Shown here: piece by piece, positions 10,016 to 34,445 of the stretch
Layout: the number at the start of each line of letters is the position of its first letter
Numbering within the stretch: position 1 is the first letter of the stretch
IMG/VR virus record: IMGVR_UViG_2681813201_000019
Length of the DNA: 43,972 bases
Strand: one strand, 5' to 3'
Origin: a virus
Taxonomy: Duplodnaviria > Heunggongvirae > Uroviricota > Caudoviricetes
The notes under the pieces: generated by a model
What the model was told of the DNA's origin: nothing
The model's input: the letters and a program-made list of their open reading frames with translations, nothing else
Database searches by the model: none
Translations under genes and position numbers: made by a program

Positions 10016-10426
10016 ATGCACGCAAAAGAAGAAGGTATCATCAGAGCACTGAAAGAAATTTCAAAGACAGAAAACGAAGTAGCGAAAAAAGCCGTGGCAA
10101 ATGCACATATGGACGTCGCAACCCACACACTGATAGTCGCAAGAGTCACGGCAGAAGCAGCCGAAATTATCGCAAAACAGGATGCTGAACTGGCGGTTCT
10201 CAGAACACAACCAGTCACCGGACTGGATTTGTCTAACACCGGACGCCTTATTTACACAATTGGCTCGGAGCTACAGCGATACACCATTATCGCCGGATTA
10301 CAGGATAAATACCTGATCACTCCTCACCCCATAAGGGAATCAGAAATTCTGACAAATCTCCGCCTGATAGAACGCTCTCAAGTTGTATTCATTGATGACG
10401 CGCAATGTGCCGTATTTAACGCATAG
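10016..10426 (+). CDS. Hypothetical early protein
   Basis: 136-aa ORF. Confidence 0.45.
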   Translation: MHAKEEGIIRALKEISKTENEVAKKAVANAHMDVATHTLIVARVTAEAAEIIAKQDAELAVLRTQPVTGLDLSNTGRLIYTIGSELQRYTIIAGLQDKYLITPHPIRESEILTNLRLIERSQVVFIDDAQCAVFNA

Positions 10427-10449
10427 GGTTACTGGACAAAGGGGGCGCA

Positions 10450-10653
10450 ATGGCAATTAAGCATTTTCCCGTCGTTCGCTTTACCTCCAGAGGGCGCGAA
10501 TACGAGGTCGACGAACGCCTGATTACCACTATCGACAAACATCGTTCGGAAAAGGATGCACACCACATCTACCTCACTGACGGCACTTACTTCTGCGCCA
10601 CCAACGTGGCGCGGGTGAATCTTATCCGACAGGTACAGGAGCCACGCAGATGA
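10450..10653 (+). CDS. Hypothetical early protein
   Basis: 67-aa ORF. Confidence 0.4.
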   Translation: MAIKHFPVVRFTSRGREYEVDERLITTIDKHRSEKDAHHIYLTDGTYFCATNVARVNLIRQVQEPRR

Positions 10654-10916
10654 CCATTCTGGACTACATCGCTACTCATCCGGGGTGTAGCGGCGGAGAG
10701 ATCGCCGCAGCACTGAATACCCCAACCACAGCCATTAATGCTGAGTTACGCCGACTTTGGCGCGGCGGCTTAGTCATCAGAACAAACCGCAGCACAGGTG
10801 GTCGCGCTCGCAAAACAGGAGGCCAGGCTTCTTACCACGTAAACCCGATGCTGTTCGGGTGTAGTAATCCACTTACTCACATGTTTAACCAGCTACTGAA
10901 GGAAGCCAGAGCATGA
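10650..10916 (+). CDS. Small putative DNA-binding protein (winged-helix-like)
   Basis: 88 aa; ILDYIATHPGCSGGEIAAALNTPTTAINAELRRLWRGGLV resembles a winged HTH. Confidence 0.4.
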   Translation: MTILDYIATHPGCSGGEIAAALNTPTTAINAELRRLWRGGLVIRTNRSTGGRARKTGGQASYHVNPMLFGCSNPLTHMFNQLLKEARA

Positions 10917-11212
10917 GCACCATCAACCACCAGAAGCTACGCGAACTGGCATTTGCCCTGCAACGAATGGCAACGCCTCAAAAATTACTGGCATTTCGCG
11001 CAATGCTCTCGCCGTCTGCTGTGCTGGCACTGCTGGATCAGCTGGAGCACGCCAGAACCACTGCTCCAGCCATTCGCCTCACGCTCCATCATGAAATCGC
11101 TGATTTCTGCGCAACGCTGGGGGCACCTGGCGAACCGGAAACGCCGGAAGCAATGCAGCAAGAGCTGCTGCAACGCATCGATAACGTTTTTGATTTTTTT
11201 CTGAACCAGTAA
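10913..11212 (+). CDS. Hypothetical early protein
   Basis: 99-aa ORF, translationally coupled to the previous gene. Confidence 0.4.
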   Translation: MSTINHQKLRELAFALQRMATPQKLLAFRAMLSPSAVLALLDQLEHARTTAPAIRLTLHHEIADFCATLGAPGEPETPEAMQQELLQRIDNVFDFFLNQ

Positions 11213-11534: not shown

Positions 11535-11765
11535 ATGGCAGACCGCAAACAGCACCGCGCTATCGCGGAGCGTCGTCACATCCAGACTGAAATCAACCGC
11601 AGACTTTCCCGCGCATCACGCGTCGCGCAAATCATGCACATCAATATGCTGCATGAGCGCAGCCACGCACTATCAAACATTTATTCCGCCTCTGTTTTCA
11701 GCTATCTGGCGGATGATCTGCACGAGCTTCAACAGCTCATCCAGCAGCAAAACAAACTCCATTAA
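11535..11765 (+). CDS. Hypothetical small basic protein
   Basis: 76-aa ORF with an AGAGG Shine-Dalgarno upstream; the overlapping 205-aa frame (11224..11841) looks non-coding. Confidence 0.35.
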   Translation: MADRKQHRAIAERRHIQTEINRRLSRASRVAQIMHINMLHERSHALSNIYSASVFSYLADDLHELQQLIQQQNKLH

Positions 11766-12209: not shown

Positions 12210-15032
12210 ATGACGGCAGAGTACATCAGGGACTGGCAACAACCGCGCCACGCAGTGGGGCGTGAAGGAACGGGGATCCCCGCTCCTGAATCCGCGCTTT
12301 CCTCCTGGCTGGATGCCTACCGGGTAGAGAACGAGCGCCGCCAGGAAATGGCTGATGCGGCGTTCTCCGCCACGCCGCTGGGCAACCTGATTAATAAAAG
12401 CCTGGACGCACAGGAAAAACAGGACAAAACCATCACACTGGCAGGAGACGCCAGAAAACAGGCACGCGGCGCAGTGGATGAAGCCATGACCTCGCTGCGC
12501 CTGCTGCCGTCCTATCTGCGCGATCCGCTTATTCGCCACCTCTCCTTCCTGCGCAAAAAACAGGAAGCCGATCGCCGGAAAGGCAAAAAGAGCTGGCAGG
12601 CGGAACGCTATGCACGCGGAACCCTGCGCAAAATATTCGAACGTCTGGACCGCACCGATCACCGCTGGCTGACACCGGGTTATCGCTCCCTTGCCGGACG
12701 CGAACGCCTGGACGATTTGCTTTACCTGCCGCAGCTCAACAAACACCAGATACAGACGCTGGCCACCATGACGGCGGCGATGTTCAGCAGCACCTTCGAA
12801 AAACTCTGCGATGGCTTTGGCGCGACTGATGGCGAACTGACCATGGATGTAACGCTGAAGGCGTATCAGATGCTGGCCCGCATGGCGTTACACCTGCACG
12901 CCATGCCTCCACATTATGACGCACTGACAACAGACAAAGACCGGAGGAACGAACCGGACACAGAGCTGCTGCCGGGCGCAATCCTTCGCCTGACCTGTGC
13001 GGAATGGTGGAAACGCAAACTGTGGCTGTTACGTTGCGAGTGGAGAGAAGAACAACTCCGCGCCGCCTGTCTGGTTTCCAGAAAAACATCGCCCTATCTG
13101 AGCCAGGACGCGTTAAGCGAGTTTCGCGCACAGCGCGAGAAAACACGCGATTTCCTGAAAAGTTTCATGCTGGAAAACGAAGACGGGTTCACGATTGATC
13201 TCGAGACAGTGTATTACGCGGGAGTAAGTAACCCGGTTCACCGTAAGGCAGAAATGATGGCCACCATGAAGGGACTGGAACTTCTGGCCGAAGCCCGTGG
13301 CGACAGAGCGGTGTTTCTGACTGTCACCTGCCCGTCAAAATACCACGCAACAACGGAGAACGGTCATCCGAACCCCAAATGGAACGGGGCCACCATGCGC
13401 GACTCCAGCGATTACCTGGTTAACACGTTTTTTGCGGCGGTCCGCAAAAAACTGAACCGCGACGGCCTGCGCTGGTATGGCATCCGCACGGTGGAGCCTC
13501 ACCATGACGGCACCGTGCACTGGCATATGATGGTCTTTGCTCATCCGGAAGAAATCGACAGCATCGTGGCCATCACCCGCGATATTGCCATTCAGGAAGA
13601 CCGCCACGAGCTGGGCAATGATATTACTCCGCGCTTTAAAGTGGAGTATGTCGACGGCTCAAAAGGCACACCAACCAGCTATATCGCGACCTACATCGGG
13701 AAAAACCTGGACAGCCGCGCCGTGGATGGCATCGACCCGAAAACGGGCAAACCACGCGTTGACCACGAAACCGGAAAATCAATGGCCGAGAGCGTGGAGC
13801 GCGCCATCGGTTGGGCACGCCTTCACCGGGTCCGCCAGTTCCAGTTCTTTGGCATCCCCTCCCGTCAGGTGTGGCGTGAACTCCGCCGCCTTGCCAGCCA
13901 GATGGCACGCAACCCGGAAGGCCCGCAACGGCTGAAGGATGACGCAATGGATGCGGTACTCGCTGCCGCTGATGCCGGATGTTTTGCCACCTACATAGAG
14001 AAACAGGGCGGCGTACTTGTTCCACGCAAAGACTACCTGATTCGCACCGCCTACGACCTCGCCGATGAGCTGAACGATTACGGCGAACAGAGTGTACAGA
14101 TTTACGGGATCTGGTCACCACTCATCGGGGAATCCTCCCGTGTGTGCACGCACCCGGATAACTGGAAGCTGGTAAGACGTAAACCGGAACAGGAAGGCAG
14201 CGCCCACGAAAATGGTTTTGACCTTCAGGGCGGCCCTGCCGCCCCTTGGACTCGTGGCAATAACTGTCCCCGTGTACAGGAAACGGACAACAACGGGACA
14301 GAACAGCCGGAAGAACGGCCAGCACCGTGGCCGCAGCTCCCTGACGGCGTTGAAGTGAACGAATGGATGCGCTCACTGAAACGGCACGAACGCCGGGCGC
14401 TGATGCGTTCGCTTCGTGACAAACAGGCAAAAAACAGCAGTGATGAAATGCAGAGCTGGACACAGAGCCGCAAACAGCAGCGGCCTTTGCCTGATAACCA
14501 CGAATTACTCGCTAAAGAATGGCGGGAGTCTGCTGAATCTCTCGGCCTGCATATCGGTGAACAACAGATGCAGCACCTGTTACGGGGCGGCAGTCTGTAC
14601 GTTGACGGCAGCATCATTGCACCGCAGGGGTTTGAAATTGTACGCAAACCGGATACCCGCCCGGACAGCCGAATCACGCAGCTCTGGCAGCGCCTGAGCC
14701 GTAATCACGGCGTAAGCAGCACGGAGATCCGCCATAACCCGGTCGCCAGCTATCTGGCGCAACTGGGGGCATCAGACCCTGAAGCCGCCGCACGCCTGGC
14801 ATCCACACTTCAGCAGGACCAGAACACCATGAAAACACCCGTTACCGTGCTTTCTGACATGCTGCGCGCCATCCGCGACACAGAGCACGCACAGAGAATC
14901 AGTGAAACCACTGAACGCGCCCGCCGCAAAGCAGACCTGCTGCGGGGTGGCCTGACCATTGGAAACAAAAAACAGACAGAAACGGGATTCACAAATCCCG
15001 TAAATGAGCAAAAAACGCGCCGCGATATATGA
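12210..15032 (+). CDS. A: Replication initiation endonuclease, gpA-like (rolling-circle HUH initiator)
   Basis: 940 aa; HUH motif HWHMMVF and tyrosine pair in TSYIATYIGKN typical of the P2 A / phiX174 A superfamily; expected position after the early genes. Confidence 0.85.
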   Translation: MTAEYIRDWQQPRHAVGREGTGIPAPESALSSWLDAYRVENERRQEMADAAFSATPLGNLINKSLDAQEKQDKTITLAGDARKQARGAVDEAMTSLRLLPSYLRDPLIRHLSFLRKKQEADRRKGKKSWQAERYARGTLRKIFERLDRTDHRWLTPGYRSLAGRERLDDLLYLPQLNKHQIQTLATMTAAMFSSTFEKLCDGFGATDGELTMDVTLKAYQMLARMALHLHAMPPHYDALTTDKDRRNEPDTELLPGAILRLTCAEWWKRKLWLLRCEWREEQLRAACLVSRKTSPYLSQDALSEFRAQREKTRDFLKSFMLENEDGFTIDLETVYYAGVSNPVHRKAEMMATMKGLELLAEARGDRAVFLTVTCPSKYHATTENGHPNPKWNGATMRDSSDYLVNTFFAAVRKKLNRDGLRWYGIRTVEPHHDGTVHWHMMVFAHPEEIDSIVAITRDIAIQEDRHELGNDITPRFKVEYVDGSKGTPTSYIATYIGKNLDSRAVDGIDPKTGKPRVDHETGKSMAESVERAIGWARLHRVRQFQFFGIPSRQVWRELRRLASQMARNPEGPQRLKDDAMDAVLAAADAGCFATYIEKQGGVLVPRKDYLIRTAYDLADELNDYGEQSVQIYGIWSPLIGESSRVCTHPDNWKLVRRKPEQEGSAHENGFDLQGGPAAPWTRGNNCPRVQETDNNGTEQPEERPAPWPQLPDGVEVNEWMRSLKRHERRALMRSLRDKQAKNSSDEMQSWTQSRKQQRPLPDNHELLAKEWRESAESLGLHIGEQQMQHLLRGGSLYVDGSIIAPQGFEIVRKPDTRPDSRITQLWQRLSRNHGVSSTEIRHNPVASYLAQLGASDPEAAARLASTLQQDQNTMKTPVTVLSDMLRAIRDTEHAQRISETTERARRKADLLRGGLTIGNKKQTETGFTNPVNEQKTRRDI

Positions 15033-15108
15033 AGCGCGCATAAAACAGGCAAAAACGGGATTTCAGAATCCCGTAAACGATTAATTAATCAACATAAGGA
15101 AAAGCGAC
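14975..15108. promoter_or_regulatory. Two 20-bp palindromes ACGGGATT-N4-AATCCCGT about 70 bp apart, immediately upstream of the parM-like gene (candidate parC/operator)
   Basis: Perfect 8-bp inverted arms with 4-bp spacers at about 14981..15000 and 15053..15072; no T-run, so not typical intrinsic terminators. Confidence 0.4.
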
Positions 15109-16068
15109 ATGAAAATTTGTATCGATGACGGCTCCACCAACATCAAGCTGGCATGGACTGAGAACGGCGAACGCCGCAACGCCATCAGCCCGAACAGCTT
15201 CAAGTCGGAATGGTCTGCGCCGTTCGGTGGCACGCAGCCCGCGAACTACATGCTTGATGGCGTGCGCTATGGTTTTGATCCGGTCAGCGATCGCTTTGTC
15301 CAGACGACCGACACGCAATACCAGTACAGCGATGTGAATGTCATTGCCATTCATCACGCGCTGGTCAAATCAGGCATCACACCACAGGAAGTGGATGTGG
15401 TTGTCACCCTGCCACTGAGCGAATATTTCGACACAAACGCACAGCCGGACATGGCCAACATCAACCGCAAAAAAGCAAACGTCATGCGCCCGGTGGCGTA
15501 CCAGAACGGAAAAGCATTCACTATCCGTAACGTACGGGTTATGCCTGAATCCATTCCGGCTGGTTTTAAAGCACTGGCTGACATGAGTCCGTTTGAATCC
15601 CTGCTGATTGTGGATTTAGGCGGAACCACGCTGGATGTGGCAAAGGTTCAGGGACAACTGGCAGGTATCAGCCAGGTGTTTTGCGATCCACACGTAGGCG
15701 TTTCCCTGATGGCCGATGCCGTACTGTCGGTGATGGCCACTAACGGTATGCGTACCAGTCACCACATCGCCAATACCATTATCGAACATCGCCATGATGA
15801 AGCCTGGCTGCGCCAGCACATCCACAATGACGCGCATTACGACAGCCTGATAGCGGTTATTCGTGAAAAGGAAGAAACACTGAAACAACGCGTGATCCGC
15901 GCGCTGGCGGGTTTTTCGGGTTACGGGCGGGTGATGGTTGTCGGTGGCGGGGCGGAGATTGTGGCACCCGCTATCCGCGAAGCCTGCGGAGTTAATGCGA
16001 CTTTCATCGCGGACGGGGTGCCACAGTTTGCTCTGGTTAATGGGCTGTACGCAATGGACAAGGAGTAA
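15109..16068 (+). CDS. parM: ParM/StbA-like actin-family segregation ATPase
   Basis: 319 aa; N-terminus MKICIDDGSTNIKLAW against R1 ParM MLVFIDDGSTNIKLQW, and similarity continues along the length (YSDVNVIAIHHAL, RRKANVMRPV, LLIVDLGGTTLDV, MVVGGGAE, LVNGLY). Confidence 0.85.
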   Translation: MKICIDDGSTNIKLAWTENGERRNAISPNSFKSEWSAPFGGTQPANYMLDGVRYGFDPVSDRFVQTTDTQYQYSDVNVIAIHHALVKSGITPQEVDVVVTLPLSEYFDTNAQPDMANINRKKANVMRPVAYQNGKAFTIRNVRVMPESIPAGFKALADMSPFESLLIVDLGGTTLDVAKVQGQLAGISQVFCDPHVGVSLMADAVLSVMATNGMRTSHHIANTIIEHRHDEAWLRQHIHNDAHYDSLIAVIREKEETLKQRVIRALAGFSGYGRVMVVGGGAEIVAPAIREACGVNATFIADGVPQFALVNGLYAMDKE

Positions 16069-16072
16069 ACCA

Positions 16073-16384
16073 ATGACGACACCAACCAGACGGATAAGTT
16101 TCTATCTGAAGCCCGCCGCCGTCAAGAACGAAGGCAAAGCATGCGCCTGGCTGGACAGCCTTACACCAGAAGCCCGCAAAAGTGGTCAACGTGTGGCTTT
16201 TCTGGCCGGACTGGCACTTATGAAAATTAATCCGGCAGAGGCTTACCGACTGGCTGCATGGGCTGACGATGAAGCGTTATCCCTGACACAAACCAGGACA
16301 GAACGCCCCGTGTCACAGCCAGCACCAACCGCACAGATAACCAGTCAGATGGCCGGAAATATCCGGGCGTTATTTCCCGAATAA
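16073..16384 (+). CDS. parR: ParR-like centromere-binding protein
   Basis: 103 aa from the internal ATG with AAGGAG Shine-Dalgarno; RRISFYLKP...ACAWLDSL...AFLAGLAL...NIRALFPE parallels R1 ParR (RRTIAFKLNP...VCDTLDSI...AALTAGLAL...ILRSLFPKE). Confidence 0.7.
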   Translation: MTTPTRRISFYLKPAAVKNEGKACAWLDSLTPEARKSGQRVAFLAGLALMKINPAEAYRLAAWADDEALSLTQTRTERPVSQPAPTAQITSQMAGNIRALFPE

Positions 16385-16447
16385 CACAACATCAGGGCGC
16401 ATCCGCCCTGATGACTTTAACCCGGGAACATAAACAAGGGGGACACA

Positions 16448-16780
16448 ATGCAACACATTGACAGAGAAAAAGCGCAGCGACTGATTGAGCGGATGGAAGC
16501 GCTGGCGCAAGAAGAAAATGTCAACATCCAAAAAATAGCTGAATGTGGCCAGATAGTTCTTCGTCGTGAAAAAGACCTCAAACAACTGATGTCTGGCAAA
16601 ACCAGCAAAACATGGGCTTCAGGCGAGGAAACGATTTATTGCAGCTTCTGCAATAAATCCCAGTACGAAGTCACAAAGGTGATTGCTGGACCGTCTGTTT
16701 ACATCTGCAATGAGTGCGTGGATTTGTGCAATGAAATTATCAGGAGAGAAGTGGCAGACAAAAAGGGAAAAAACACATGA
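16448..16780 (+). CDS. ClpX N-terminal zinc-binding-domain (C4 zinc finger) protein, no AAA+ module
   Basis: 110 aa; C-terminal [39 protein letters not shown] nearly matches the ClpX zinc-binding domain ([33 protein letters not shown]); N-terminal half is charged/helical. Confidence 0.75.
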
Positions 16781-17093: not shown

Positions 17094-17585
17094 GTGCAGA
17101 TTTCACCGGTTACTCTTCGTGTTGCGAAGGCATTTATATCCAGACATCACCGACACAATAAACCCCCGGTGGGGCATAAATTCAGCATTGGTCTGAGAAA
17201 TGATGCCGGAGAATTGATAGGTGTGGCGACAGCCGGTCGACCTGTTGCACGACATTTGGATGATGGATTAACGCTTGAAGTAAATCGCACATGTACCACA
17301 GGAGAACGCAACGCTAACAGCGCGCTTTATGGTGCTGTCTGGCGGGCAGCAAAAGCTATGGGTTATCAACGTTGTATTACGTACACCCGGGCAGATGAAT
17401 CAGGAGCATCTCTTCGCGCAGCTGGTTTTGTTCGTGTGAAAGAGCTTCCTCCAAGAAAAAGCTGGGCGGAATCAAGCGTCGCCCTGCGGAGTAAACGCGA
17501 TCCAGTCGGAAACGGTGGTGTTCCTCGTGTGCTCTGGGAAATCAGGAGAATGAGTACCACTGGTATTCGCATCAAAGGAGAGTGA
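17094..17585 (+). CDS. Hypothetical protein, possibly GNAT-fold (GTG start)
   Basis: GTG 7 nt after AAGGAG; C-terminal region ...NANSALYGAVWRAAKAMGYQRCITYTRADESGASLRAAGF weakly resembles an acyl-CoA N-acyltransferase fold; ends ...GIRIKGE. Confidence 0.4.
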   Translation: MQISPVTLRVAKAFISRHHRHNKPPVGHKFSIGLRNDAGELIGVATAGRPVARHLDDGLTLEVNRTCTTGERNANSALYGAVWRAAKAMGYQRCITYTRADESGASLRAAGFVRVKELPPRKSWAESSVALRSKRDPVGNGGVPRVLWEIRRMSTTGIRIKGE

Positions 17586-18612: not shown

Positions 18613-19659
18613 TCAGGATGTGGGCTGGATGTCTAACAGTGCGTAAGGGTTAAAGCGGATCACCTCTTCGCCAAGCCAGTCATTGATGTGCTTCATGGCC
18701 TCCATGACGGGCATCAGCTCGTTAATTGCGTAAACTCGCGCGGCCTTCTCCACATCACCAAACGCACTTTTTTCACCCGGCATCGCCCCCATCAGTTGCG
18801 GCGGAACGCGGTGCGCAGCCAGCACATCATCACGGGATGCCGCCTTAACATTCATGAACTCATCCTTTGCGGTGATCTGCTGGAACGGCAAAATTTGCAC
18901 CCCCTCTTTGCCCCCGTTGGGCGCATGAATGAGCACGTTTTTAAACGCACCACCACCACGCGCGCCCTGTAACGTTTCTTTCAGGGAGTCCATGCTTTCG
19001 CGGTTTACCTGCGCTGCACCAATGTAGATGATGCACCCGGCGTGGGAGCCGTTGTCGTAGTACAGTTTTCTGAACATGTCCGCCGAATGAGAAAGGCTGG
19101 CCGAGAGTAATGCGCCAAGATATTCCGGCATGCCGTAGATTTCCTGATTAATATCCGGATTCATCAGATGGCACACTTTGCCAGGGCGAAACTGAAACGC
19201 GTCCTTGCCATCCTGCACATACCACCATGATTCAAGATCGCTTCCGCGTCGCATGTATTTCGCCAGTGCGTGCCGTAATTTAAGCGGTTCGCCGAGCATA
19301 TTGCTTCGAAGCTCAAGGAATGCGTTACCGAACACAAACCAGTCCAGCGCCAGCGCCGAGAAATCCTGCCGGGAAAGCAGCGGGTGCGGAATATAGCAGC
19401 CGAGCAATACATTGCGCTTAAAGTAAAGCGCAGACTGATGCCAGGACGTTTGCCGGGCAGCTCTTGCCAGACCGTACCAGTCTACCGGGGTTTCATACCA
19501 CCGCCCGTTATCAGCACAGTACATATTGTCCAGCAGGTCATGCCCGGTCAGGCGATAAGGACCATCAAATGTGAATGCACTGAGCGATGATTCTTTCCTG
19601 AGCGCATCAGCGAGATCAATGCGTGAACTCATGCGCACTTTTTTATTTTTTCTGCTCAT
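18613..19659 (-). CDS. Q: Portal protein (gpQ)
   Basis: 348 aa, P2 gpQ-like in size and position, adjacent to the large terminase and divergent from O. Confidence 0.85.
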   Translation of the reverse strand: MSRKNKKVRMSSRIDLADALRKESSLSAFTFDGPYRLTGHDLLDNMYCADNGRWYETPVDWYGLARAARQTSWHQSALYFKRNVLLGCYIPHPLLSRQDFSALALDWFVFGNAFLELRSNMLGEPLKLRHALAKYMRRGSDLESWWYVQDGKDAFQFRPGKVCHLMNPDINQEIYGMPEYLGALLSASLSHSADMFRKLYYDNGSHAGCIIYIGAAQVNRESMDSLKETLQGARGGGAFKNVLIHAPNGGKEGVQILPFQQITAKDEFMNVKAASRDDVLAAHRVPPQLMGAMPGEKSAFGDVEKAARVYAINELMPVMEAMKHINDWLGEEVIRFNPYALLDIQPTS

Positions 19660-32530: not shown

Positions 32531-32533
32531 CTC

Positions 32534-33067
32534 TCATTCTGGTTGTTCGGGAAACGTTACTGGCAGGCTGGAGGTGTCTGTAGATTCGACTTTCTGCGCA
32601 AAGAGCATCCACTCGGTTAATTTCTGCTTATTCTCGTCGGAAATGATGCCCAGCCGTAGCTGTGAGTCCCATAGCTGGGTTTTATCCCTGACAAGTTGCA
32701 ACAGGCTTTGCTTTTCATTTTCCGCTTGTTGTCTCTGCTCTTCCTCGGTATAAGTTCGCTTTATCACTACGCCATCTTTGAACATCCATTTCCCCGAAAT
32801 ATCAGCCCGGCGATTTGCTGTAATATCAGGTAATTCAACGACGCTTGCGCCTTCCGGATTAATTGCTGAAACATCCTTTTCAATACAAATAATAACGCCG
32901 TTATGGTCATAGACCATTTTCAAAGTGTCTGGCTGGAAATTCTTTTGTTCCTCATACCAGTTTTTTCCATCATCTGAATAAAGCCATTTGATGTTAAATT
33001 GCTTTGTTAGCTGGTATTGCTCTTTTGTTTTAGGGTTGCCAGCAGTAATGTTTTTTAAGTGCATCAT
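32534..33067 (-). CDS. Alternative tail fibre assembly chaperone (G'), inverted orientation
   Basis: 177 aa; [24 protein letters not shown]... is a paralogue of gpG on the opposite strand inside the invertible segment. Confidence 0.8.
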   Translation of the reverse strand: MMHLKNITAGNPKTKEQYQLTKQFNIKWLYSDDGKNWYEEQKNFQPDTLKMVYDHNGVIICIEKDVSAINPEGASVVELPDITANRRADISGKWMFKDGVVIKRTYTEEEQRQQAENEKQSLLQLVRDKTQLWDSQLRLGIISDENKQKLTEWMLFAQKVESTDTSSLPVTFPEQPE

Positions 33068-33069
33068 CG

Positions 33070-33780
33070 TTAAATACTCCCCGCGTTATACCACGTCCCA
33101 TTAATGCAATACTGAATTGGCCTTGCCTGTGTTGTATCAATTAATTCATCACGGTTTCCGTTAACTGAACCCGTAACGACATAACCTGACCTGTCAGACC
33201 AGCCGGGACCATTCCATGTCTGAACAGATGACAGACCGCCAAGGCGAATACCTGTAATAAACCTTGAGTTACATTCTGCCTGCGTATATGCACCAACATC
33301 TCCCGCTGAAGGTTTTCGTGTCGTGGTATAGAAATCTGACCAACCTAATTCAAACCCATAACCATCACGAGCCGACCTGTAGGAAATGCCACCATTTTTA
33401 TAATTCACACGGAATTGTACGGCAGGACAGCTACCAGCATTTATATTAAAGTGAAGAATTAATACAGATGCACCACCAATCAGGGCGTTATATGCACCAC
33501 TATCCCAATTCCATCCAACGGATGTATCACCATTAACAGTATTACCTGTTTGTCGGAGTGCAAATGCATTGACATTTTTGGCACTAATTGAAATATCGCT
33601 AGAACCATCAAAACCAACTCCAGCAATTTTTCGTGCTGTTTTCAGCTTTGTTGCAGTAGCGGCATTGCCGGACAGTTCCCCAGAAAGGCCACCGCTGAAT
33701 GTTTGTCGATTGGTCCAGGTATTCGCTGTACTGAGTAACGGTATTTTCTCCCCGCTTGTGCCGAGTTCTCGTAAACCGAG
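33070..33780 (-). CDS. Alternative tail-fibre C-terminal cassette with no start codon (would fuse to the gpH constant region after inversion)
   Basis: Reading the minus strand from the gix-like site gives an open frame of about 232 codons (LGLRELGTSGEKIPLL...INGTWYNAGSI) in phase with the gpH crossover codons; ends with the same INGTWYN motif as the current gpH C-terminus. Confidence 0.6.
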   Translation of the reverse strand, partial: LGLRELGTSGEKIPLLSTANTWTNRQTFSGGLSGELSGNAATATKLKTARKIAGVGFDGSSDISISAKNVNAFALRQTGNTVNGDTSVGWNWDSGAYNALIGGASVLILHFNINAGSCPAVQFRVNYKNGGISYRSARDGYGFELGWSDFYTTTRKPSAGDVGAYTQAECNSRFITGIRLGGLSSVQTWNGPGWSDRSGYVVTGSVNGNRDELIDTTQARPIQYCINGTWYNAGSI

Positions 33781-33791
33781 GTTTTAAATAA
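33766..33791. other. gix/hix-like recombination site (right boundary of the invertible segment)
   Basis: TTCTCGTAAACCGAGGTTTTAAATAA, inverted relative to 31088..31113 and just upstream of the invertase gene. Confidence 0.6.
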
Positions 33792-33827
33792 TGGCCGTTT
33801 CTGGCCTGCATGGCATGATTTGCGCTT

Positions 33828-34445
33828 TTGGACGGGAGATTCAGTGTGCTGATTGGCTATGTAAGGGTATCAACAAATGACCAGAATACAGACCTGCAAC
33901 GAAACGCTCTTGTTTGTGCAGGATGTGAACAAATATTTGAAGATAAATTAAGCGGGACAAAGACAGACCGACCGGGATTAAAACGCGCTTTAAAGCGCCT
34001 TCAAAAAGGTGACACGCTGGTTGTCTGGAAACTGGATCGCCTCGGGCGAAGCATGAAACATCTGATTTCTCTCGTCGGGGAACTACGGGAGCGAGGGATT
34101 AATTTTCGCAGTCTGACCGACAGCATAGACACATCTTCTCCAATGGGGCGTTTTTTCTTCCACGTGATGGGTGCCCTGGCTGAAATGGAACGTGAATTAA
34201 TTGTTGAACGTACACTGGCCGGGCTGGCGGCAGCGCGCGCAAGGGGGCGCACAGGCGGACGTCGACCGAAGCTGACAAAAGAACAGCATGAGCAAATAGC
34301 AAGGCTAATCAAAAACGGGCACGACAGAAAACAACTGGCAATAATTTACGGCATTGGCACATCGACGATTTATCGTTATCACCCTGTAGGCGATATACAG
34401 ACTGAAGAAACAACCGGGCAGACTCAGGAAAATGAAAACCGCTAA
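33828..34445 (+). CDS. Serine DNA invertase (Gin/Hin/Cin/Pin family)
   Basis: LIGYVRVSTNDQNTDLQRNAL...GDTLVVWKLDRLGRS... and a C-terminal HTH; the true start may be the internal GTG (VLIGY...) 18 nt downstream. Confidence 0.9.
   Translation: MDGRFSVLIGYVRVSTNDQNTDLQRNALVCAGCEQIFEDKLSGTKTDRPGLKRALKRLQKGDTLVVWKLDRLGRSMKHLISLVGELRERGINFRSLTDSIDTSSPMGRFFFHVMGALAEMERELIVERTLAGLAAARARGRTGGRRPKLTKEQHEQIARLIKNGHDRKQLAIIYGIGTSTIYRYHPVGDIQTEETTGQTQENENR

Follow-up and report, generated by a model that had tools for sequence, protein, structure and literature searches.

The DNA stretch analysed here (IMG/VR virus record IMGVR_UViG_2681813201_000019; 43,972 bp; further referred to as the window) carries a two-gene cassette on its plus strand, directly downstream of a P2-type replication gene. 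This cassette consists of parM (15109 - 16068), coding for an actin-like segregation ATPase of 319 amino acids (aa), and parR (16073 - 16384), coding for a ribbon-helix-helix adaptor of 103 aa, and is preceded by two palindromes that are candidate ParR-binding sites. An earlier note on this DNA, made from the sequence alone, had described a plasmid-type partition cassette inside an integrated P2-like prophage. All four elements of that cassette were retrieved, with slightly corrected coordinates, and the nature of the host element was confirmed as well. Indeed, the cassette region (query 14960 - 16400) was 100% identical to the chromosome of Escherichia coli NU14, in which the prophage adjoins dmsABC and opens with the integrase, C, and cox genes, followed by gene A, parM, parR, five small genes, and then, on the opposite strand, the portal and terminase genes. 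The prophage is P88-like and belongs to the genus Xuanwuvirus of the Peduoviridae (P2 family). Phages carrying the cassette are known to be active, P88 being inducible and phiSM being spontaneously active.

The gene preceding the cassette (gene A; 12210 - 15032, plus strand) codes for an HUH rolling-circle replication endonuclease of 940 aa (Phage_GPA, 1.7e-130) and is the sole replication gene identified in the window. A homologue of the P2 ori nick region is located inside this gene (14230 - 14267, plus strand; matching P2 nucleotide 29892), with the nick-site homologue at about position 14249, so that the rolling-circle origin likely precedes the first palindrome by about 730 bp.

Identity and conservation of the cassette genes and sites

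The product of parM, which is preceded by a ribosome-binding site (AAGGA; 15096 - 15100), matched both Pfam domains of the ParM family (StbA_N, 6.9e-82; ParM C-terminal domain, 2.1e-68) and, over residues 2 to 316, the structures of ParM of plasmid R1 (1mwk and others; E=2e-92), so that the similarity to R1 ParM put forward in the earlier note holds on formal alignment. Its full-length identity to the StbA protein of R1-type IncF plasmids amounts to about 47%, and the residues of IDDGST, VMPESIPAG, and DLGGTTLD are the same in the cassette ParM and R1 ParM. The motifs IDDGST, PESIPAG, and DLGGTTLD are taken here to be those responsible for nucleotide binding and catalysis in R1 ParM. The parR gene starts with an ATG codon at position 16073, 5 nucleotides (nt) past the stop codon of parM; the open reading frame (ORF) listed by a program from position 15938 represents the same frame prolonged upstream. 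Its product belongs to the ParR/StbB family (Pfam Plasmid_stab_B, PF10784; 1.6e-25), as does R1-type ParR, and is 22 - 28% identical to plasmid ParR/StbB proteins. A PDB search with the single cassette ParR sequence returned spurious antibody matches only, and a ParR profile including this sequence matched ParR of pB171 (PDB 2JD3; 1.1e-17), which agrees with the ParR-like nature assigned to this gene before. The RefSeq labels are 'plasmid segregation protein ParM' and 'plasmid partitioning/stability family protein', and both products are a 'partition protein' in PHROGs. Hence, an actin-fold ATPase of the ParM/StbA type and a small ParR adaptor encoded directly downstream of parM, as found in type II partition systems, are both present, and the order cis site-parM-parR is common to R1 and the cassette.

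Selection was assessed on 84 copies of the cassette, comprising the window, public records, and IMG/VR contigs. The parM gene was full length in 83 of them and displayed a ratio of nonsynonymous to synonymous substitution rates (dN/dS) of 0.056, indicating that it is under strong purifying selection. For parR, dN/dS amounted to 0.30 overall, to 0.19 for residues 1 to 64, and to 0.77 for the linker. The N-terminus of ParR (MTTPTRRISFYLKP) was constant save three rare single-locus substitutions, and the C-terminal tail was kept as NI(R/Q)A(L/F)FP(E/K) (NIRALFPE in the window), in contrast to the hypervariable linker. This tail is comparable to that of R1-type ParR; its motif (K/R)xN(A/I)xxLFP aligns with the C-termini of plasmid ParR proteins and is kept across the hypervariable phage alleles. 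Such a conservation pattern is as would be expected for a protein in which a flexible linker joins a head that binds DNA to a tail that binds ParM. The parR gene is also mosaic, as the nucleotide similarity ends about 18 codons into the gene (near position 16127) for roughly half of the E. coli matches. At least three to four deep parR allele classes occur, which have the N-terminus and the C-terminal tail in common, differ by about 50% in their helical core, and possess a wholly different linker. The left edge of the hotspot between gene A and gene Q seems to be located inside parR.

Two perfect 20-bp palindromes, both of the form ACGGGATT-N4-AATCCCGT, occur upstream of parM, as had been noticed before. 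Site 1 (ACGGGATTcacaAATCCCGT; 14982 - 15001) is located inside the 3' end of gene A, again as described in the earlier note, and ends 31 nt short of its stop codon. Site 2 (ACGGGATTtcagAATCCCGT; 15055 - 15074) is located 73 bp from site 1, within the 76 bp that separate gene A from parM. These palindromes were the sole two matches in the entire window when three mismatches were allowed; 0.16 matches were expected by chance, and at least two matches were found in none of 100 shuffles. Each palindrome is part of one of two 42-nt direct repeats (14966 - 15007 and 15039 - 15080), which are 81% identical and 73 bp apart and together make up a parC-like region (14966 - 15080, plus strand).

The arrangement of these sites recurs in distant P2-like prophages. 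In E. coli, CGGG-N10-CCCG occurs twice, 73 bp apart. Similarly, Hafnia contains TGGG-N10-CCCA and CGGG-N10-CCCA upstream of parM, 73 bp apart, and Plesiomonas contains two 26-nt repeats (GCGGGACAAC...CCCG) upstream of parM, 72 bp apart. Thus, the outer GGG/CCC and the spacing of 72 - 73 bp are kept in the three lineages, whereas the inner palindrome is not. Folding revealed no stable stem for the Hafnia and Plesiomonas dyads and hairpins of about -10 to -11 kcal/mol for those of the window, and one-arm substitutions in site 2 were tolerated among 82 close relatives. The conservation of the outer dyad and its spacing without a stable stem favours a protein-binding dyad over an RNA hairpin. Serratia and Enterobacter display another layout, with GGGAAC...GTTCCC inverted repeats. 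Furthermore, the ParR strand TRR(I/V)SFYL is common to E. coli, Hafnia, and Plesiomonas, and Serratia ParR starts with NRKISFYL, which weakly suggests that the site layout may co-vary with the ParR N-terminus across four lineages.

The earlier note had placed the palindromes where a parC centromere or operator would be expected. This placement stands as far as the position and the conservation of dyad and spacing are concerned, but an array of ten iterons such as that of R1 is not present. Indeed, parC of R1 is an A/C-rich array of ten 11-bp direct repeats flanking the promoter, whereas the cassette possesses a pair of 20-bp dyads, which are spaced by 73 bp and of which one falls in a coding gene, together with a weak promoter candidate only. 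The centromere feature of the type II family therefore appears to be represented in part, because R1-type parC is built differently.

Distribution and descent of the cassette

Of 5426 complete E. coli genomes, 1308 (about 24%) possessed the cassette, some of them in two or three copies, and 1454 of the 1456 copies were chromosomal. At a coverage of at least 80%, the same gene A type occurred in 1356 E. coli genomes and the cassette in 1278, indicating that the latter is near-core in the P88-like lineage. Among 50,697 phage records, ParM relatives were retrieved only from P88-like phages and from the P1-like phage-plasmid D6 (48% identity). The plasmid ParM proteins comprised a class of 95 - 99% identity, representing P88-like DNA in plasmid records, and all others were at most 52% identical.

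More distant ParM relatives occur in Hafnia (62% identity), Plesiomonas (62%), Serratia (58%), and Enterobacter (53%), in each case in a P2-like prophage, in the interval between gene A and the portal gene, and followed by a PF10784 gene. Indeed, all ParM proteins found with at least 53% identity to the query occupy this position in P2-like prophages. In species-representative genomes, gene A was located upstream of every real match of at least 58% and of none of those of at most 52%. A 62% match on an Apirhabdus 'plasmid' was rejected as an exception, since it concerned a frameshifted R1-type parM beside umuDC, the value of 62% applying to the best segment only. Relatives of 49 - 50% identity were present in an integrative and conjugative element (ICE) of Dickeya and in an integrated plasmid of Mangrovibacter. 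In a neighbour-joining tree, the phage ParM proteins formed two adjacent clades, apart from the plasmid clades. These comparisons indicate that the association of ParM with the P2 family is old and not a recent capture, and that the module appears to be a long-standing, near-core part of the P88-like (Xuanwuvirus) and related P2-family lineages.

The parM gene directly follows gene A in E. coli, Plesiomonas, and Serratia, and two genes intervene in Enterobacter. The C-terminal extension present in the gene A product of 940 aa was compared with a 167-aa ORF located between gene A and parM of Hafnia as a possible homologue, but no similarity was seen. Right after parR, Serratia contains genes for a HicAB toxin-antitoxin system (L090, 7450 - 8084) and Enterobacter a gene for a KAP-family NTPase (L092, 7411 - 8757), which indicates that variable cargo starts immediately 3' of parR. 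Finally, an E. coli-type P88-like prophage with a ParM of 97% identity was encountered on a 226-kb contig labelled Vagococcus sp. WN89Y (NZ_JBQPOM010000071.1), which is probably a contaminated or mislabelled assembly.

A proposed role on the free phage genome and its alternatives

The best explanation for the cassette is a functional segregation module of type II (ParMRC-like) whose substrate is the phage genome as a free circle and not the integrated prophage, a reading to which a probability of roughly 0.6 is assigned. The cassette does something for the phage, because parM is under strong purifying selection although the prophage is integrated. We infer that ParR dimers would bind to the two GGGA...TCCC dyads by means of the invariant N-terminal ribbon-helix-helix strand; with 73 bp (about seven helical turns) between them, both dyads would be exposed on the same helical face. 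The C-terminal tail of ParR would capture ParM-ATP filaments, and filaments growing between two ParR-bound copies would drive circular phage genomes apart. Such action would be restricted to stages at which a free circle exists, namely after infection and before integration, after excision, and during rolling-circle replication driven by the gene A product (gpA). As an outcome, copies would reach both cell halves and both daughter cells, without loss or clumping. In the integrated state the module would be superfluous, and it is probably off or expressed at a low level, through the repressed early operon or through ParR autorepression at site 2.

Two options are compatible with the expression signals: the cassette may be transcribed as part of the early operon, which lysogens keep silent, or it may possess a weak promoter that ParR represses. 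A consensus scan revealed no plus-strand terminator between gene A and parM. A looser scan yielded a weak candidate promoter (15062 - 15092, plus strand; TTCAGA-16 nt-ATTAAT), which overlaps site 2 and scores 8 of 12 consensus positions, its putative -10 element falling in a ATTAATCAA block (15084 - 15092) that is kept in three lineages. Directly after parR, a hairpin with a 10-bp stem (16390 - 16413), T-rich in its tail on the minus strand, likely represents the end of the cassette transcription unit. The cassette may be quiet in lysogens.

Several points weigh against a segregation module for the free circle. First, with just two lone dyads the cassette stays far below R1 parC and its ten iterons, and the dyads could play the role of an operator alone. 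Second, a strict consensus scan found no convincing sigma-70 promoter for the cassette. Third, parM, parR, and palindrome 2 are deleted in a rare P88-like prophage (NZ_CP115358.1), in which palindrome 1 is retained in gene A and a frameshifted ead/Ea22-like gene alone lies between gene A and the portal gene, so that the cassette is dispensable for chromosomal residence as a prophage. Fourth, gene A of Hafnia is 33% identical and its ParM 62%; gene A and ParM do not strictly co-diverge, and this unequal divergence points to module shuffling. Furthermore, it is not obvious what a phage would gain from partition when its rolling-circle replication is followed by lysis of the host, and no functional study of the P88-like cassette was found in the literature.

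A more far-reaching proposal, tentative and on balance doubtful, is that a P2-family lineage present in about a quarter of the E. coli genomes has built an actin-like ParMRC machine firmly into its life cycle. It would do so either by alternating between integration and a facultative plasmid or carrier state or by filament positioning coupled to gpA rolling-circle replication, and it would rely on a minimal two-dyad centromere that is partly located in the replication gene.

It is unlikely that ParM and ParR are mainly accessory to gpA rolling-circle replication, by localizing or stimulating the HUH nickase, with inheritance being secondary. Such a role would fit a cassette that stays adjacent to gene A, at about 730 bp from the ori-like site, as well as the stimulation of nicking by the TraI relaxase by ParM and ParR of R1 and the requirement of AlpAC for efficient replication of prophage CGP3. 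However, gene A types are swapped relative to ParM, and the two genes that separate gene A from parM in Enterobacter argue against it too.

Slightly less probable still is that P88-like phages are true phage-plasmids, in which the cassette would keep the prophage as a stable low-copy plasmid in a substantial share of the lysogens. This possibility was raised by Rousset et al. (2022), who noted the cassette and proposed an episomal state, and by Pfeifer et al. (2021), who drew attention to P88 and suggested 'episomal and integrative states'; annotation and print thus already contain the cassette and the notion of an episomal stage. The episomal phase or other role put forward in the earlier note is a hypothesis of the same content. 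In favour of phage-plasmids, the circular 'plasmid' record pZ1323PEC0009-2 (NZ_CP148288.1; 34,461 bp) is a complete P88-like phage with integrase. Moreover, plasmid partition genes are found, as in the cassette phage, in D6 (ParM/StbA type) and in KS14, a P2-like phage with a plasmid prophage that has P2-type morphogenesis genes in common with the P88-like element. However, D6 and KS14 are maintained as plasmids and possess plasmid replicons, KS14 having RepB and ParA, whereas the P88-like element has kept its integrase, is integrated beside dmsABC, and possesses the lytic rolling-circle gene A as the sole replication gene identified; extrachromosomal maintenance with a plasmid-type replicon was not found for it, and its copies in E. 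coli are chromosomal but for two. In addition, the phage of pZ1323PEC0009-2 occurs integrated, with 99.9% identity, in Z1323HEC0067, so that excision or induction may have given rise to the circle. The former record stems from a cat isolate from South Korea, and the latter is a human isolate of the same accession series. 'Escherichia phage 520873' was considered as an episome too, but turned out to be a linear prophage cut-out with host yecA and IS100. Taken together, the census, the integrase, gene A as the sole identified replication gene, the integrated twin, and the 520873 cut-out argue against a stable plasmid lifestyle, and a transient free-circle stage is likely the arena in which the cassette acts.

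A comparably low probability applies to the palindromes being RNA hairpins or terminators, for instance minus-strand ones by which gene A would be protected against late antisense transcripts, or part of the replication origin, instead of ParR sites. In a consensus scan both palindromes resembled minus-strand terminators, in that a T-run comes after the hairpin; they fold with the energies given above, and the P2 ori sits in the 3' part of gene A. However, no minus-strand gene is located upstream of the palindromes before the portal gene at position 18613, and the further hairpin at 16390 - 16413 is already present there. Contrary to an intrinsic terminator, there is no plus-strand T-run and the stem is lost in Hafnia and Plesiomonas. 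Also, the substitutions in the 82 close relatives followed no consistent compensatory pattern on either strand, and the palindromes did not match any Rfam family. An origin was rejected, as the P2 nick-site homologue lies about 730 bp upstream and the palindromes are therefore not the nick site.

Least probable of all is that the cassette is accessory cargo of the P2 hotspot between gene A and the portal gene, acting in defence, exclusion, or incompatibility versus incoming plasmids or phages and not in segregating the phage: it does lie within the gene A-gene Q interval, an anti-phage hotspot as defined by Rousset et al., and HicAB and KAP NTPase genes neighbour it in relatives, but neither ParM nor ParR matched PADLOC-DB v2 (2023) at E<=0.1, and the cassette is near-universal in its lineage, unlike hotspot cargo, holds its gene A-proximal syntenic position across deep divergence, and has cis sites partly embedded in gene A.

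Neighbouring genes, related systems, and significance

The interval between gene A and the portal gene further contains genes coding for a ClpX-type zinc-finger protein (16448 - 16780; PF06689, 2.8e-18) and a Mom-like DNA modification protein (17094 - 17585; phrog_1384, 1.2e-41; 'XF1762 family' in RefSeq). Three additional small proteins without known function are encoded between 16448 and 18121, and the proteins of this interval had no significant PADLOC match (best E 0.019). Upstream of gene A, the early region contains a gene for an SPFH-domain protein and a small gene (about 10340 - 11164 and 11535 - 11765 of the window; 15381 - 16205 and 16576 - 16806 of L003), the position of the latter being annotated as 'derepression protein' in related records. 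The tail-fibre region (about 32531 - 34442 of the window; 37572 - 39483 of L003) contains opposed tail-fibre-assembly genes, a truncated tail gene, and an invertase-like gene of the recombinase family, which suggests an invertible host-range segment.

Apart from its cis site, the cassette differs from parMRC (stbAB) of the IncF plasmids R1 and NR1 in that its host is an integrating phage with a rolling-circle replicon and its ParM belongs to a clade distinct from those of plasmids. The srpMRC system of SXT/R391 ICEs resembles the cassette as an actin-type partition system on a normally integrated element; it stabilizes the excised element, and its expression requires induction (Carraro et al. 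2015, PMC4489591). It thus acts on a transient excised circle, and its srpC is functional as a small centromere of just four 13-bp repeats. Unlike the cassette, however, srpMRC belongs to a conjugative element and not to a phage, the relationship of SrpM and SrpR to ParM and ParR is no more than distant, SrpR being devoid of a recognizable ParR domain, and its function has been demonstrated, whereas the cassette is known from sequence. Similarly, AlpAC/alpS of the Corynebacterium glutamicum prophage CGP3 is switched on soon after excision, and the phage DNA needs it to replicate efficiently (Donovan et al. 2015, PMC4446434). Like the cassette, it combines an actin-like filament with a DNA-binding adaptor, which binds upstream of its own operon, and originates from an integrated prophage, but it involves a different actin-like family and adaptor, a Gram-positive host, and a large cryptic prophage.

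To what was known of the P88-like cassette, the present analysis adds that the two-dyad site is conserved, that the phage ParM proteins have a deep clade of their own, that the cassette is near-core in its lineage, and how selection acts on it. Insight into the role of the cassette would show the use of cytoskeletal partition machines outside plasmids, beside the sole two studied cases, AlpAC and srpMRC, and would clarify the boundary between integrating phages and phage-plasmids.

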